Origin: Pristiophorus japonicus
Lineage: Eukaryota
Length of the DNA stretch: 64,000 bases
Reading direction: 5' to 3'
Assembly (NCBI RefSeq): GCF_044704955.1
Contig: NC_091993.1
Location: 100,254,001-100,318,000 of the forward strand
Notes under the pieces: model-generated
The model's database searches: none
Seen by the model: only the letters and a program-made list of their open reading frames with translations
What the model was told of the DNA's origin: nothing
Position numbers and translations under genes: made by a program
In this document: positions 2,401 to 63,883 of the stretch, one piece after another
Position numbering within the stretch: the first letter of the stretch is position 1
How the letters are laid out: the number at the start of each line of letters is the position of its first letter

Positions 2401-4505
2401 ATGCTAAGCAGCAGAAGCAGCATGCTATAAACAGAGTTAAGCAATCCCACAATCAACAGATCAGATCAAAGATCTGCAGTCCTGCTACATCCAGCCATGA
2501 ATGATGGTGAACAATTAAACAACTAACAGGAGGAGGAGGCTTCATGAATATTCCCATCCTCAATAATGGTAAAGCCCAGCATGCGAGTGCAAAGGACAAG
2601 GTTGAACCGTTTGCAACCATCTTCAGCCAGAAGTGCTGAGTGAATGATCCATATTGGCCTCCTCCTGACGTCCCCACTATTACAGAAGCCAGTCTTCAGC
2701 CAACTCGATTCACTCCATGTGATATCAAGAAATGGCTGAGCGCACTGGTTAGAGCAAAGGCTATGGGCCCCGACAAAATCCCAGCTGTCATGCTGAAGAC
2801 TTGTGCTCCAGAACTAGCCGTGCCTCAAGCCAAGCTGTTCCAGTACAGTTACAACACAGGAAGCTACCCGACAATAAGAACATAAGAACGTAAGAAATAA
2901 CAGCAAGAGTAGGCCATTTGGCCCCTTGCGCCTGCTCCGCTATTCAATAAGATCATGGCTGATTTGATCCTGGCCTCAACTCCACTTCCCTGCCTATTCC
3001 CCATAATCCTTGACTCCCTTATCTTTCAAAAATCTGTCTATCTCCACCTTATTCAAAAACCCATCCTCCACTGGTCTCTGGGGTAGAGAATTCCATAGAT
3101 TCACGACCCTCTGAGAGAAGAAATTCCTCCTCATCTCCACTTTAAATGGACGACCCCTTATCATGAAACTACGCCCCCTAGTTCTAGATTTCCCCACGGG
3201 GGGAAACATCCTCTCTGCATCTACCCTGTCAGCCCCCTCGGAATTTTATAGGTTTCAATAAGATCACCTCTCATTCTTCTAAACTCCAATGAGTGTAGGC
3301 CCAACCCGCTCAAACTTTCTTCATAAGACAACCCCTTCATCTCAGGAATCAACCTCGTGAAACTTCTTTGAACTGCCTCCAATGCAAGTATATCCCTCCT
3401 TAAATAAGGAGACCAAAACTATATACAGTAATCCAGGTGTGGTCTCACCAATACCCTGCACCATTGTAGCAGGACCTCCCTACTTTTATACTCCATCTCC
3501 CTTGCAATGAAGGTCTTCCTAATTATTGCTGTGTCTGTATGCTAACCTTTTGTGATTCATGTACAAGGACCCTCAGATCTCTTTGTACCGCAACATTTTG
3601 TAATCTCTCCCCATTTAAATAATAATTTGCTTTTTTATTTTTCCCATCAAAGTGGATAACCTCATATTTTCTCACATTATACTCCATTTGCCAAAGTTTT
3701 GCCCACTCACTTAGGCTATCTATATATTTGCGTCCTCCTCACAACTTGCTTTCCCACCTATCTTTGTATCATCAGCAAATATGGTTACATTACACTCGGC
3801 CCCATCATCCAAGTCATTAATATAGATTGTAAATAGTTGAGGCTTCAGCACTGATCCCTGTGGCACCTCACTAGTTACTGTTTGCCAACCTGAAAAATAA
3901 CCCATTTATCCACAAAAGCAGGACAAATCCAATCCGACCAATTACTGCCCCATCAGTCTACTCTCAATCATCAGCAAAGTGATGGAAGGTGTCGTCGACA
4001 GTGCTATCATCCAGCACTTACTCACCAATGATCTGTCACCGAAGCTCAATTTGATTCCGCCTGGATCACTTGGCTCCAGACCTCATTACAGCCTTGGTCC
4101 AAACATGGACAAGAGAGCTGAATTCCAGAGGTGAGGTGAAAATGACTGCCTTTGACATTAAGTCAGCATTTGACCGAGTGTGGCGTCAAGGAGCCCTAGT
4201 AAAACTGAAGTCAATGGGAATCACGGGGAAAACTCTCCACTGGCTGGAGTCATACCTAGCACAAAGGAAGATGTTTGTGGTTGTTGGACGTCATTCATCC
4301 CAGCTCTAGGACATCACTGCTGGAGTTACTCTGGGTAGTGTTCTAGGCCTAACCATCTTCAGCTGCTTCATCAATGACCTACCCTCCATCATAAGGTCGG
4401 AAATGAAGATATTTGCTGCTGATTACAGAGTGTTCAGTTCCATTCGCAACTCCTCAGAAAATGAAGCAGCAAGACCTGGATGACATTCAGGTTTGAGCTG
4501 ATAAA
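2401..4505 (+). mobile_element. Decayed RT fragment of a second CR1-group LINE family, split by the insertion at 2875-3908
   Basis: KAMGPDKIP..LKTCAPEL before the insert; PISLLSI, DIKSAFDRVW, GSVLG, degenerate FADD after it. Confidence 0.75.
2875..3908 (-). mobile_element. 5'-truncated CR1 3' fragment
   Basis: PQGSVL, FADDTK on the minus strand; (ttcttatg)n-type tail at 2875-2895. Confidence 0.88.
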
Positions 4506-4559
4506 CTAGGCTGGCATTTCAGTGCAGTACCAAGGAAGTCCTGCACTGCTGGAGATGCC

Positions 4560-5182
4560 GGACCCGAAATTGATGGCCTTTACCGCCCACTGCCGTTGAC
4601 ATTCCTCCTTGAGTTGCACCCAGTGCCACTTTCGATTTGGGCTGGAGTGGGCTAGAGGGGAGAACCATCTCACTGGGCGGGGGTCCACTTATGCCACTCA
4701 GCGAATGGCCGAGTGGCGTAAGTGGACCCCCGCCCAGTAAGATGCCATATTGGTGCGGGCGGGGGTCGGTGAGAGTCGGTGCCAGAACAGGGGTGGACCG
4801 CTGGCTGGAGGCTGGTCTGTCCCCGACAGTAGGTATGAAGAGCTGAAAAACAGATGAGTAAACATTTCATAATTTTTTTCTTTACAGGGACTTACTTGGA
4901 TGTTTTCTTTTGATGCTTTTCCTTTTCAGGTCTTCGACCCTCCGTGGGCCCGACTCCATCCTTGGTGGCACTTGGGCAGCAAGCGCATTTGCCGCCGAGA
5001 TTGGGAGCTCCCGCCGGCTACTGCCCAGATTAGCAGCCCAAGTCCCTCTTTTGCCGCCCGCTGTCCTTTGAAGGACCTTTCCGATGAAAACCCTGCCCAA
5101 AGTACCGTCAGGTACCTCGGCGGGCCATTGGTGGTCCTTTGGGCTGCACTTGGGCGGGCGGGGGCCTTCACCAATTTCGGCC
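4560..5182. mobile_element. GC-rich non-autonomous TIR element (MITE-like) inserted in a SINE remnant
   Basis: Termini gacccgaaattg / caatttcggcc are inverted; SINE-like sequence on both sides (4505-4559, 5183-5217). Confidence 0.6.
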
Positions 5183-5257
5183 ACGCTAATTTCATTGTTG
5201 TTTGTGGGAGCTTGCTGAAGAACTGAAGGAATCTGTCAGCCTTTCAAAAAGTGCTTA

Positions 5258-6378
5258 AATCAAATAGGCTTGTTAGCAAAATTAAAGCCCATGGGATAAA
5301 AGCAGCCGCATGGCTAGAAATTGGCTAAGGGATCGAAAACAGAGAGTTGTGGTGAAAGGCTGCTCTTCGGACTGGAAGGAGGTTTACAGTGGAGTTCCCC
5401 AAGGTTCAGTATTAGGACCACTGCTGTTTTTGATATACATTAATGACTTGGACTTGGGGGTACAGGGCACAATTTCAAAATTTTCAAGTCTAATAAACAA
5501 TGCGGAAGCTAGTAATAGACTTCAAGAAGACATAGACAGGCTGGAGGAATGGGCGGACACGTGGTCGATGAAATTCAACGCAGAGAAGTGTGAAATGATA
5601 CATTTTGGTAGGAATAATGAGGAGGGACCAAACATACTAAATGGTACAATTTTAAAGGGGTACAAGAACAGAGAGACCTGGGGGTGCTTGTGCACAAAGG
5701 TTTGAAGATGGCAGGGCAGATAAACAAAGCAGTTAATAAAGCAGATGGGGTCTTGGGCTTTATAAATAGAGGCTTGCATACAAAAGCCAGGAAGCTACGC
5801 TAAACCTATATAAAACACTAGTTCAGCCACAGCTGGAGTATTGTGTCGAATTCTGGGCACCACACTTTAGGAAGGACGTGAAGGCTTTGGAGAAGGTACA
5901 GAAGAGATTTACTAGAATGGTTCCAGGGATGAGGGATTACAGTTACGTGGATAGACTGGAGAAGCTGGGGTTGTTCTCCTCAGAGCAGAGAAGGCGAGAG
6001 GAGATTTGATAGAAGTGTTTAAAATCATAAAGGGTTTAGACAGAGTAAATAAAGTGAAACTTTCTTCAATGACTGAATGGTTGATAATGGGAGGGCACGG
6101 ATTTAAGGTGATTGCTAAAAGAACCAGAGGTAACATGAGGGAAAACTTTTTTAGACAACGAGTTGTTAGAATTTGGAATGTTTTGCCCGATAGGACAGTG
6201 GATACAGATTCAATAGTAGCCTTCAAAAGGGAATTGGATAAATACTTGAAAGAGAAAAAATTGCTCGGATATGGGGAAAGAACAGGGGAGTGGGATTAAC
6301 CGGTTTGCTCTACAAAAGAGCTGGCACAGACTCGACAGGCCGAATGGCCTCCTTCTGTGCTGTTATTCTATGATTATA
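5258..6378 (+). mobile_element. CR1 ORF2 3' fragment (older subfamily)
   Basis: [36 protein letters not shown]; tail gccgaatggcctcc..ttctatg. Confidence 0.88.
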
Positions 6379-6388
6379 TCATTCTATT

Positions 6389-6941
6389 GGCTGGATTTTC
6401 ACGTGGTTTGTGACCGGGTTTTTGCCACGTTTTGACCCTCCATGGTGAAAACCCGATCGCTAAACCTGGTGGTGATCCTTGGTTCCTAGTTTGCGGTGGT
6501 GCTTGGAAGCACCGCTGGGGGGAGCTGCACCGGGGGTGGTACGACTCGGATTGCGACAATGTCCGAGTTTCGAGACTCACACGACCCGTACGCCGCGCCC
6601 TGAAGATCGCCAGCCCCGGTAATTTGGAAAACCTGAAAAAAAGGTAAATGAAATGTTTTCTTTTCTTTGCAGCGATTTGTTAGGTAAGGGTCTTGGTCAT
6701 GTTTTTGGAATTAAAATTTTTTTTTTCCCCCTCTCCAAAGGCCTCTCTCGCAGTGCTTCCGGCCCCACAATAAAGTTGGCGAGGATCGCGTTTTTGTGCC
6801 GCGAATAATTGTGCAACGCCTCCCTTTGTGATGCCCCAAAGGCCGAAAGTTAGGCCTTAAATCAATAACGAAGGGAAAACGGTAATTTTCTGCACCGCCT
6901 CCGTTTTCGCCCCGAAATGGAGAAACCCAAAAATCTAGCCC
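6389..6941. mobile_element. GC-rich TIR element, same family as 13956-14491
   Basis: ggctggatttt / aaaatctagcc inverted termini; internal similarity to 13956-14491. Confidence 0.75.
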
Positions 6942-9134
6942 CCTTGCATCAACTTGCCGAGTTCCACTGTCCTGTCCATGTGGGACCTCATTTAAAACAA
7001 CATTTGGCAGCCCAAAAGTTAAATTATGCCTTTAACAGTGTCTGACTAGGTTCGATCATGGCCTGAAATATTGACTTAATTGCCATTCAATTAACTAATA
7101 AACACAGGTGTGCAAGCAGACTGCTGCAGTTTGGTCCTGAATTTAATCTTTTGTTTGTCAAGTGTGTGTCAATCTCCCTGAACACTGTTCTTTCATTTTG
7201 AGTCTATATTTTAAAAAAAAGAGTGGTCAGGGAGAATTTTTAGAGCAAGTAATTTTTTTGTGGCCTATATATAGTCTCCTTCCTTCCTATATTCGTCTAG
7301 GTAGTTTCTATTCTTCCTCAGACTACAAAACGACCGTTGAAACAGGATAAACAATAACAGTCTGTTAAGTACATCAGTGCCAATGAAACCTGTCTCAAAT
7401 GTGATTTATAGCACTGGCATTGTAACATTTTTAAAATAAAAGAAGTATGGCACAAATTGCAGTTTTATACAGATAGTAAAATTACTCACAGTCTAAAAAT
7501 CTGCCTGCATCAAAAGAAACTTTGGAGCTTCTACATATTTTTCTCATGTACTCCCGAACTGTCGGATATAGGAAATATATTAATACAGAAAGTTCGGTAG
7601 AGTTAGAATGTAAACTCAGTGAAGGCAGGAAGATAAGTGAGGAATTTTAAGTGTTTTCCCCGAGGCCCCATCCTGGAAGCAAAGGTAGGTAAGGAGCTTG
7701 AAAAACATGGCCAGGAAATCCAGATGAAACAAAATAAAAGCTGTACTAATTAGACATCGATAGGGCTGATTTCTGTGTTTACTATAACCTGCTTTGACTG
7801 TTTTGCTTTAACAAGATAAGTCAAGACATAGAATTGAAGAGAAAATACCACGTAAATGTGATTGTTAGTATAAAGTGTGAACAGAACAGCTCAACAAAGG
7901 ATGACACTTGTCTCTAAAATACTGAAGTCGACATTTTAACACTCTGAAGAATAGTTCTGGACAAGAATGCGCACAGCGAAGTAAAGATTATAATCTTGGA
8001 ATTTATTTTTCGGAATTCAACAGGATGTCAGTGTACTATACAGGTAAATGTTTGGAATTTTTGAATTCTCTAGGGTACAGAGAAGGTCGCTGACCCAATG
8101 ACCATAAAATAAATTCTACTCGGCCACCTCAAAGCAACAGTGTGTGGGAAAAACTCCTACTTTGTTGGGAGGTCAGGAGGTCACTCGAAAGGCATCCTAT
8201 TTGTCATTCAAAATCTCTTTAAGGATTATCCTTTCTTCATGACCAGGTCTGCAAATACCCAGTTTGTAAATATGAGAAGGAAGTGAATGGTTAGCCTGAC
8301 TGTGATGCTCTTTGAACTACATGGCAGTCCTTATCAAAATACCTAGTTAAATGTGTGTGGAAAAATCTCATGGCCTTGTTAATGAAGTCCTATTGGAGAG
8401 CTGTCAGCTATAAACAAAGGAATTTATATGGGATGATTCTGTATTTGTTTTACATGCTAACTCCTCAACAATTATATATTGTTTTGGTGCATGCAAAAGC
8501 TCTCCTAACCTTATTTTCCATATTATTTCCCAGTCTGTAGTGTATCCTTTATACAATATACAGATGTTGTACCTTTTTAAAATATATTTTTTCAGTGACT
8601 GGGATTACAGTGAACTATAATTATTTTCAATTTAGTGTGGATTGATTTTGAATGGAGTGAAAGATTAGATTCATGACACTATTATCTATTAACTATCAGA
8701 GTGTATCCTGCTTTAAAAAATGTATTAACATTATACCGGAGTAGAGTTTGTCTAGTGTAAATACTATAGATTGGCTAGTGTTCCTCTTAAATCACTATTA
8801 GTGGTGTTTCAGTGAAGCATCAAGAGTGGTGTAAATGCCTCCCAGAGTCATGCTGATTTCCCTCTCCTATTAATCACAAACAAAATGGCTGTGTTTGCAG
8901 GTCTGACCTCAGCAATTACAGTTTGCGCAGTCAGCTGGATTTCAATTTTGTGAATGAATTGGCTCTATGATGTTCAATACTAGACTAATGTGTTACACAA
9001 TTTCACTGCCATTTTAACTCTGTCCTGAGCTGTGACTTTCCTGCTAAACTGAATAAAGTCGAGACCTGCCGGGAAGATGAAAAGGCCCAAGCAGGTACAG
9101 GTTATTTTATTTCCAGAGTATGATCACCATTCCA

Positions 9135-22245: not shown

Positions 22246-22339
22246 TTTGCAATGCCAGCCATTAGGAAGAAGTCTAATGCTCATACCTCCTGATCCTTGT
22301 GGTCCATGGAGAGGGTGATGAATTCCCTAGCTCTGCCAT
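22246..22339 (+). repeat. 94-bp direct repeat, copy 1 (copy 2 at 25761-25854)
   Basis: tttgcaatgccagc..ctagctctgccat; 2 mismatches between copies. Confidence 0.9.
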
Positions 22340-25760: not shown

Positions 25761-25854
25761 TTTGCAATGCCAGCTATTAGGAAGAAGTCTAATGCTCATG
25801 CCTCCTGATCCTTGTGGTCCATGGAGAGGGTGATGAATTCCCTAGCTCTGCCAT
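25761..25854 (+). repeat. 94-bp direct repeat, copy 2
   Basis: Matches 22246-22339. Confidence 0.9.
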
Positions 25855-62557: not shown

Positions 62558-63022
62558 TGTCAGCTGCGGCTCAATGGGTAGTACTCTCACCTCTGAGTCA
62601 GAAGGTTGTGGGTTCAAGTTCCACTCCAGGAACTTGTAGCACAATAATCTAAGCTGACACTCCAGTGCAGTGCTGAGGCAGTGCTGCACTGTCAGAGGTG
62701 CCATCTTTCGGATGCGACGTTAAACCGAGGCCCCGTCTGCTCTCTAAAGTGGACATAAAAGATCCCATGGAAATATTTTGAAGAAGAGCAGGGGAGTTAT
62801 CCCCGGTGTCCTGGTTAATATTTATCCCTTAATCAACCTGACAAAAAAACAGATTATCTGGTCATTATCACATTGCTGTTTTTGGGAGCTTGCTGTGCGC
62901 AAATGCCGTGATTCCCACATTACTACAGTGACTACACTCCGAAAGTACTAAATTGGTGGTGAAGCACTTTGAGACGTCGGGTGGTCATGAAAGGCACTAT
63001 ATAAATCCAAGTCTTTCTTTCT
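62558..63022 (+). mobile_element. Full-length Deu-domain SINE
   Basis: tRNA-like head, Deu-like core, tail gcactatataaatccaagtctttc. Confidence 0.85.
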
Positions 63023-63046
63023 TTTCATTTGTAAATTATTTTCTTG
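62938..63046 (+). repeat. 109-bp perfect direct repeat, copy 1 (copy 2 at 63775-63883)
   Basis: tccgaaagtactaaattgg..aattattttcttg identical in both places. Confidence 0.95.
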
Positions 63047-63049
63047 AGA

Positions 63050-63212
63050 CGTTGACCTCTTCCAATGACCCCTGACCCTAGTTTGACGTTGGCCAATCCC
63101 AATGACCTGCGACTCTTGACCCTGGAGTAACGTTGGCCTCTCCCAATGACCTGCGACCCCTGACCCTAGTTTGACATTGGCCAATCCCAATGACCTGCGA
63201 CCCCTGACCCGA
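63050..63212 (+). repeat. About 44-bp minisatellite, 3-4 units
   Basis: ttggccaatcccaatgacctgcgacccctgaccctagtttgac(g/a) repeated. Confidence 0.85.
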
Positions 63213-63228
63213 GTAGGCCGTCACTCAC

Positions 63229-63438
63229 CGAAAATGCCGAAGCCGATGCCGACCAAGACCAGAGCCACCAGGATGCATTTATTCAGCGAGAAGCCCACGT
63301 CCTCCTCCTCATCGGCCAGGACCACCGAGACTCTGGGCACGGCTTTGCCGCCGGGTGCCTCCGACAGCTGCCGCTTGCGCAGTCCGCCTGACTCGTCCTG
63401 CACGCTCAAACTCCCGATCTCCTCGATATCGCTCACCG
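63229..63438 (-). CDS. PBXIP1: Single 210-bp phase 1-1 coding exon of a PBXIP1/CCPG1-family membrane protein (transmembrane exon), apparently orphan
   Basis: cag|CG GTG.. and ..TTC G|gtgagt; translates VSDIEE..GLRKRQ..DEEEDVGFSLNKCILVALVLVGIGFGIF(G); LRKR + acidic + SLNKC + TM is the family signature as I recall it; CCPG1 not excluded. Confidence 0.62.
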
Positions 63439-63452
63439 CTGCCGGACAACAG

Positions 63453-63782
63453 TAAAAGACAGATTTGCATTTATATAGCACCTTTCACCACCTCAGGGCA
63501 TCCAAAGCGCTTTACAGCCAATGAAGCACTTTTGGAGTGTGGTCACTTCAATGTTGTATTGTGGGAAACGCGGCAGCTCAATTTGCGCACAGCAAGCTCC
63601 CACACACAGCGATGTGATAATGACCCGGATCATCTGTTTTAGTGATGTTGGTTGAGGGATAAATATTGGGCCCAGGACACCGGGGAGAACTCCCCCTGCT
63701 CTTCTTCCAATAGTGGCCCCGGGATCTTTTACATCCACCCGAGAGGGCAGACGGGGCCTCGGTTTAACGTCTCATCCGAAAG
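63453..63782 (-). mobile_element. Deu-SINE 3' half, truncated at the direct-repeat junction
   Basis: Reverse complement of the SINE body; ends at ctcatccgaaag. Confidence 0.85.
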
Positions 63783-63883
63783 TACTAAATTGGTGGTGAA
63801 GCACTTTGAGACGTCGGGTGGTCATGAAAGGCACTATATAAATCCAAGTCTTTCTTTCTTTTCATTTGTAAATTATTTTCTTG
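63775..63883 (+). repeat. 109-bp perfect direct repeat, copy 2
   Basis: Identical to 62938-63046. Confidence 0.95.

Follow-up and report, generated by a model that had tools for sequence, protein, structure and literature searches.

Within the 5.9-Gb genome of Pristiophorus japonicus, an exon of a PBXIP1-like gene on C32 has been copied, together with parts of its introns, onto another chromosome, C17, where it is bracketed by a long, unmutated duplication of host sequence. The copy lies in the window, the stretch of 64,000 nucleotides analysed here (G000:C17:100254001-100318000), whose positions are used throughout. The donor, the junctions, the duplication, the intact state of the donor and the occurrence of the left junction in sequencing reads were established directly. 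We favour, with moderate confidence, an origin at the DNA level, in one germline copy-and-paste event that followed the pattern of a 'cycle of templated insertion'. DNA-repair accidents of this kind are known and already in print, and the event adds a further example.

Structure of the insertion

The insertion is framed by two copies of a host segment, composed of the tail of a resident SINE and a short single-copy flank, whose 109 nt agree at 100% and allow no extension (Table 1). In 519 kb around the window, this pair is the sole perfect repeat of at least 100 nt among 14 near-direct repeat pairs. The inserted DNA contains a stretch of a 44-bp minisatellite together with an exon and the 3' half of a SINE, both on the minus strand.

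Table 1. Features of the insertion and of its surroundings, in window coordinates.
Feature	Position	Strand	Remarks
Resident tRNA-derived SINE	62558-63027 (approximate ends)	+	A box; GGTTCAA B-box core at 62611; tail inside duplicated target
First (original) copy of 109-bp host segment	62938-63046		SINE tail and short flank
Left junction	63046-63047		1-nt microhomology (G)
Insert	63047-63782	-	736 bp including the 8-nt overlap; copied from C32
Part of donor downstream intron	63047-63228	-	182 bp; piece of 44-bp minisatellite, continuing in donor
PBXIP1-like exon	63229-63438	-	210 nt long and symmetrical (phase 1-1); no difference from donor; limits match the X5 contig
3' half of donor intronic SINE	63455-63782	-	Sense to donor gene
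Right junction	63775-63782		8-nt microhomology TCCGAAAG, common to donor and target
Second copy of 109-bp host segment	63775-63883
PIM-family kinase gene	~-66400 to -62319 (L043 ~3560-7681)	-

The exon has a CAG acceptor and a GTGAG donor splice site, a GC content of 64% and a CpG observed/expected ratio of 1.04, and it encodes most of the 19-residue stretch of highest hydrophobicity in the protein. As the upstream donor intron is in phase 1 and the exon also ends in phase 1, the exon is symmetrical; with its 210 nt, the same phase on both sides and intact splice sites, it has the form that exon shuffling calls for. The 69-aa peptide is unchanged in all members (4/4) of one UniRef cluster, PBX-interacting protein 1-like, the cluster's own name being pre-B-cell leukemia transcription factor-interacting protein 1-like, a label of the source for a predicted function. 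The exon has no Pfam family, and tblastn, run on 119 kb of C17 and afterwards on 519 kb, recovered none of the other exons of the PBXIP1-like protein on the host, its one match being the captured exon. The preliminary description, made from the sequence of the window, had therefore been right about the identical copies of SINE tail and flank, about an intact GC- and CpG-rich exon with both splice sites and intronic flanks, about its PBXIP1-like nature and symmetry, and about the lack of a further exon of the family nearby.

Intron is kept on both sides of the exon (182 bp and 344 bp), whereas it would have been removed in a processed retrocopy. Poly(A) is absent from the insert, in which the sole AATAAA stands 237 nt from the sense 3' end. 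The earlier argument that these features speak against a retrocopy holds for the processed kind, but does not reach intronic, RNA-templated patches without poly(A), which have been described (Onozawa and Aplan, 2016; PMC5110952).

Donor locus and age of the copy

The donor was located on the other chromosome at G000:C32:9650992-9651734, with an identity to the insert of 98-99.3%. A DNA search of the same genome gave 41 matches (40 of 176 candidates scored), and among the matches listed only the window and C32:9650992-9651452 covered the full query; a search with the exon peptide gave two 100% matches, the window exon and the C32 donor. A donor inside a complete PBXIP1 locus elsewhere had been predicted, and such a locus is present: the donor gene shows identity to the annotated PBXIP1-like protein (924 aa) across exons, with 10 tblastn pieces on C32 that cover aa 40-924 and include the large downstream exon. 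The opposite arrangement, a single-copy exon spliced to neighbouring PBXIP1 exons, is contradicted by the two genome copies of the exon and by the lack of a sister exon in 519 kb.

Since the minisatellite and the SINE run on past both breakpoints in the donor, copying went from C32 to C17. The donor locus is still in place in the assembled haplotype, as befits a distant template, and the insert is colinear with it, without permutation. Insert and donor differ by five substitutions in 736 nt (63165, 63214, 63627, 63641 and 63670), none of which (0/5) falls in the exon, and by a 7-nt deletion at ~63067-63070, between ACC repeats and ~20 nt from the left junction.

At 63165, 63214 and 63641 the derived state, judged against other SINE copies and minisatellite units, looks to be in the assembled donor, while at 63670 it is in the copy and the remaining substitution is ambiguous. 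The 0.7% divergence between donor and copy reflects either age or donor polymorphism, and the probability of an unmutated duplication is ~0.5 even at the donor-copy distance. The insertion is young, as had been claimed, with an unmutated duplication and 99.3% identity to the donor.

Two further observations were made at the donor locus. The PBXIP1-like protein has two matches in the donor gene for its residues 93-123 (C32:9659416-9659646 and 9660634-9660723), perhaps a duplicated or alternative exon. SINE copies on C32 (L002 2243-3366 and the donor region) are greatly enlarged from within by tandem repetition of a ~33-bp unit that belongs to the SINE body.

Junctions and SINEs

Because TCCGAAAG is common to donor and target at the right junction, the copied stretch measures 728-736 bp, with 101-109 bp as the net length duplicated. 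A match of at least 8 nt at a random join has a probability of 1.4e-4 (2,000,000 random pairs), while the single nucleotide shared at the left junction is at chance level (0.43); the target sequence at the site reads TTCTTG/TCC.

The resident and donor SINEs, which we take to be SacSINE1 / Deu-SINE elements, are in opposite orientation, with 78.6% identity between the resident and the inserted sequence, so that the 8-mer joins non-homologous positions. The 8-nt SINE microhomology put forward in the preliminary description is thus genuine in its length and rarity, but not as an alignment of corresponding SINE positions. The word was found at the target position in none of the other SINE copies (0/44), a private base of the resident copy creating the match; judged by these sequences, the 8-mer is a chance match without SINE-SINE homology. 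Homologous recombination between the two SINEs was rejected on account of their opposite orientation. The antisense SINE core carries the 8-mer word, so SINEs may be abundant partners for such ends. Rfam returned no relevant match for the SINE, whose size and layout agree with PMC5499810.

A long flanking duplication was seen at none of the SINE copies with a 3' end (0/46), whose longest common words measure 6-10 nt (random, 5-14), in a comparison that is blind to 3' transductions and to old, decayed duplications. The intact SINE predicted at the donor was not borne out: its body is interrupted upstream of the junction by tandem repeats and a LINE piece, and the 1226 nt upstream of the junction hold an A-box-like word and no GGTTCRA. 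Without a B-box core, the donor SINE would be a poor Pol III source, which argues against a SINE 3' transduction, a process that calls for an intact Pol III promoter.

Other direct repeats in and near the window

A second direct repeat of 94 bp (window 22246-22339 and 25761-25854, 2 mismatches) has only two copies in the genome. It surrounds a 5'-truncated LINE, presumably CR1-like, and ~230 bp of DNA, 163 bp of which were searched and are single-copy. Tested as a LINE 3' transduction with a long duplication, this repeat gave no source for the 163 bp searched, and it was not counted as support. The reading we prefer is that of a local templated copy made at the LINE 5' junction, and of a second long-duplication scar in the window. 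At window coordinates 81014-81048 and 83769-83803 (L022), a 35-bp direct repeat brackets 2.7 kb of DNA that includes a gag-like open frame; it may be another long target duplication.

Read support and zygosity

Read contigs were drawn from 4 of the 24 runs listed, X1 and X3 representing one sample, X5 another sample and X8 another organism. The left junction is contained in an 81-nt contig, with 0 differences, in both X1 and X3 (depth 5.3 and 5.4), which comprises 30 host bases, the junction and the 7-nt deletion; the bridging threshold was 31 bases, and 30 is the number expected at a branch from a graph of 31-letter words. That this junction is free of mismatches in X1 and X3 argues against an assembly error. 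A 416-nt insert contig carries the copy's own bases, and X8 offers patchy cover of the flanks only. Spanning reads had been proposed as a check on both junctions: the left one is spanned, but the right one is absent from the 32 contig pieces listed. The two are phased together in the assembly, and the left stands alone in the listed contigs. Nor was an empty allele seen, in contigs of a kind that would not reveal one at this site.

An artefact of assembly, by a chimeric read or a false duplication, would suit the perfect repeat and the right junction missing from the listed contigs, and X1 and X3 are one sample, maybe the assembled animal. The occurrence of the junction contig in two runs, however, and a copy set apart from its donor by five substitutions and a deletion make such an error very improbable, and we regard the insertion as very probably real. 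Because the junction contig is unbroken across the 7-nt deletion, no donor allele in that sample would have the deletion, on our own reading of the contig ends.

Flank contigs have a depth of 10.4-12.6, which gives junction/flank ratios of 0.45 and 0.46. The insert has a depth of 9.6 and 8.8, the expectation being 18 for three copies and 24 for four, and the 109-bp repeat, at ~22 and ~17, falls between the heterozygous and the homozygous model. The insertion is probably heterozygous, a single bias factor of ~0.43 fitting a homozygous insertion as well.

An insert depth near two copies, not three, would also agree with an extrachromosomal circle or excised fragment of C32 caught at a staggered C17 break, or recombined via a chimeric circle with the 109-bp segment, from which the same final layout would be expected. 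We consider this origin improbable, since insert and donor run colinearly, the donor in the assembly is undamaged, and a GC or locus bias (58% GC in the insert contig, 45% in the flanks) explains the low depth equally.

Proposed mechanism

In the favoured DNA-level event, DNA synthesis on C17 would have stalled at a fork, or met a break with 3' overhangs ~100 nt apart. Synthesis would then have moved over to C32, taken ~730 bp of the PBXIP1-like gene as its template and come back to C17 through 8-nt pairing, 101-109 bp upstream of its exit point; a return upstream of the exit would leave the host segment present twice. Known pathways point to a template switch by an MMBIR-like polymerase or by polymerase theta, and the copy would be a neutral passenger without a transcript.

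Several features argue for this route: intron on both sides without poly(A), the improbable 8-nt microhomology, the absence of long duplications around 46 local SINEs together with a donor SINE ill-suited to Pol III, the 7-nt deletion near the left junction that no donor allele of the sample would share, and a layout equal to the published definition of such cycles (Li et al., 2020; PMC7025897). Against it stand an insert that is sense to the donor gene, begins in a SINE and shows the longer microhomology where the 5' end of an RNA would lie, as reverse transcription of pre-mRNA would also leave it, a left match at chance level, an insert depth of ~9-10 below the three- and four-copy expectations, the right junction missing from the listed contigs, and no sight of an empty allele.

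The orientation of the insert suits an RNA template as well. Unspliced PBXIP1-like pre-mRNA could have served as template for a LINE reverse transcriptase acting where C17 was nicked or broken, with priming at 63046, the truncated cDNA joined at 63782 via the 8-nt match and a distant second nick yielding the long duplication. Polarity and junction asymmetry are consistent with this course, LINE reverse-transcriptase sequence lies within the window, and the donor is inside a gene transcribed in run X5. Class 2 templated insertions can derive from RNA without poly(A), intronic patches of this kind being described in PMC5110952, and the polarity of the insert fits either template, so that DNA and RNA both stand; ZfL2-2, an L2 element, showed 5' microhomology in ~50% of cases, and among 25 wild-type insertions one had a duplication of 1228 bp (PMC2666801). 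We nonetheless hold the RNA route to be a possible but rather unlikely one, as the priming end has neither poly(A) nor a LINE/SINE tail (the SINE tail lies ~410 nt inside), none of the 46 local SINE copies has a long duplication, within the blind spots of that comparison given above, and the donor SINE has no B-box core. The DNA-level templated insertion of the preliminary description is thus upheld in its unspliced content, distant template, target duplication and donor inside a full gene elsewhere, but its argument against RNA is too strong, the polarity fitting both.

Exon use and host surroundings

Exon shuffling in progress had also been proposed, but neither a recipient gene nor a splice was found, in a search of low sensitivity, and X5 showed no second join of the exon. 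A Pfam scan of 150 of the 235 unmasked open frames in 119 kb gave one match, a reverse transcriptase, the 85 frames outside the scan lying past window position ~71,300. From 519 kb, a crude exon finder retained 101 candidates, 99 of which had references; 98 were scanned, the captured exon being excluded, and yielded one kinase, one weak integrase and one weak SdpI, the last taken as chance. The finder recovered the captured exon and two PIM exons and missed other PIM exons, so a gene of few small exons can escape it. The nearest recognised gene, for a PIM-family kinase, is compact and has its own start codon and a first intron in phase 1; it lies on the same strand, 126 kb downstream.

In X5, a 2724-nt contig lies exactly on the exon and continues unbroken, like the spliced mRNA of the donor; X5 was treated as RNA on the evidence of a contig that stops at the splice sites. 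A role for selection on the exon was considered and rejected (0/5 substitutions in the exon, P 0.19).

The intact splice sites, the identity to the donor, the 1-1 phase and the same-strand kinase gene with its phase-1 first intron would all suit an exon that is already spliced into a C17 transcript, with shuffling under way. The lack of substitutions in the exon is within chance, however, no host exon was recognised nearby, the X5 contig crosses both exon ends in one piece and comes from an animal that may not carry the insertion, and same strand with phase 1 would be a coincidence of about 1 in 6; this use of the exon is highly improbable. Equally far-fetched is a scenario in three parts: a segregating germline cycle would have brought a symmetrical membrane-anchor exon to a place 126 kb upstream of the PIM-family kinase, on the same strand and in frame with PIM exon 2; in carriers, an upstream promoter would drive transcripts for a membrane-anchored kinase; and captures with ~100-bp duplications would commonly disperse exons in the large genomes of sharks.

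To the right of the insert, single-copy DNA has an X5 depth of 51 in one 92-nt bin (L001 2448-2539; window 63994-64085). This is probably a short chance match that fits no splice pattern found, a small exon being the alternative.

Comparison with known systems and significance

Cycles of templated insertions were defined by Li et al. (2020; PMC7025897), who reported inserted exons of other genes. The present event agrees with such cycles in that a distant template is copied, the path returns, a host segment is rereplicated (here as 109-bp identical copies with a single-copy flank), two junctions result, the donor is kept and microhomology is used; it departs from these somatic rearrangements of human cancers in being probably germline, in a cartilaginous fish, small, defined by the assembly and represented by one junction in reads.

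In Onozawa and Aplan (2016; PMC5110952), class 1 TSIPs (templated sequence insertion polymorphisms) combine a duplication with poly(A) and a TTTT/A site, and class 2 TSIPs show microhomology without a duplication. Our insertion resembles TSIPs in its sub-kilobase size, distant template, intact donor and intronic sequence, and may be polymorphic as they are. It has the duplication of at least 5 bp of class 1 without its TTTT/A site or its poly(A) with a signal 10-30 nt upstream, and the microhomology without poly(A) of class 2 together with 101-109 bp duplicated, so that neither class fully fits. The germline interchromosomal insertions attributed to FoSTeS/MMBIR by Gu et al. (2016; PMC5120786) differ in measuring tens of kilobases to megabases and in being clinically ascertained. 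L2-clade LINE integration (Suzuki et al., 2009; PMC2666801) shares the 5' microhomology and the rare long duplication, whereas the inserted 3' end is here not a LINE/SINE tail.

A literature search found no shark report of a templated insertion as a structural variant, which is weak evidence of absence. The locus offers a natural snapshot of a rearrangement class defined in tumours, with its donor, both junctions and a long unmutated duplication, probably in the germline of a shark. One likely neutral event leaves existing models unchanged; it illustrates how exon shuffling can be supplied with raw material when no transposon is involved.
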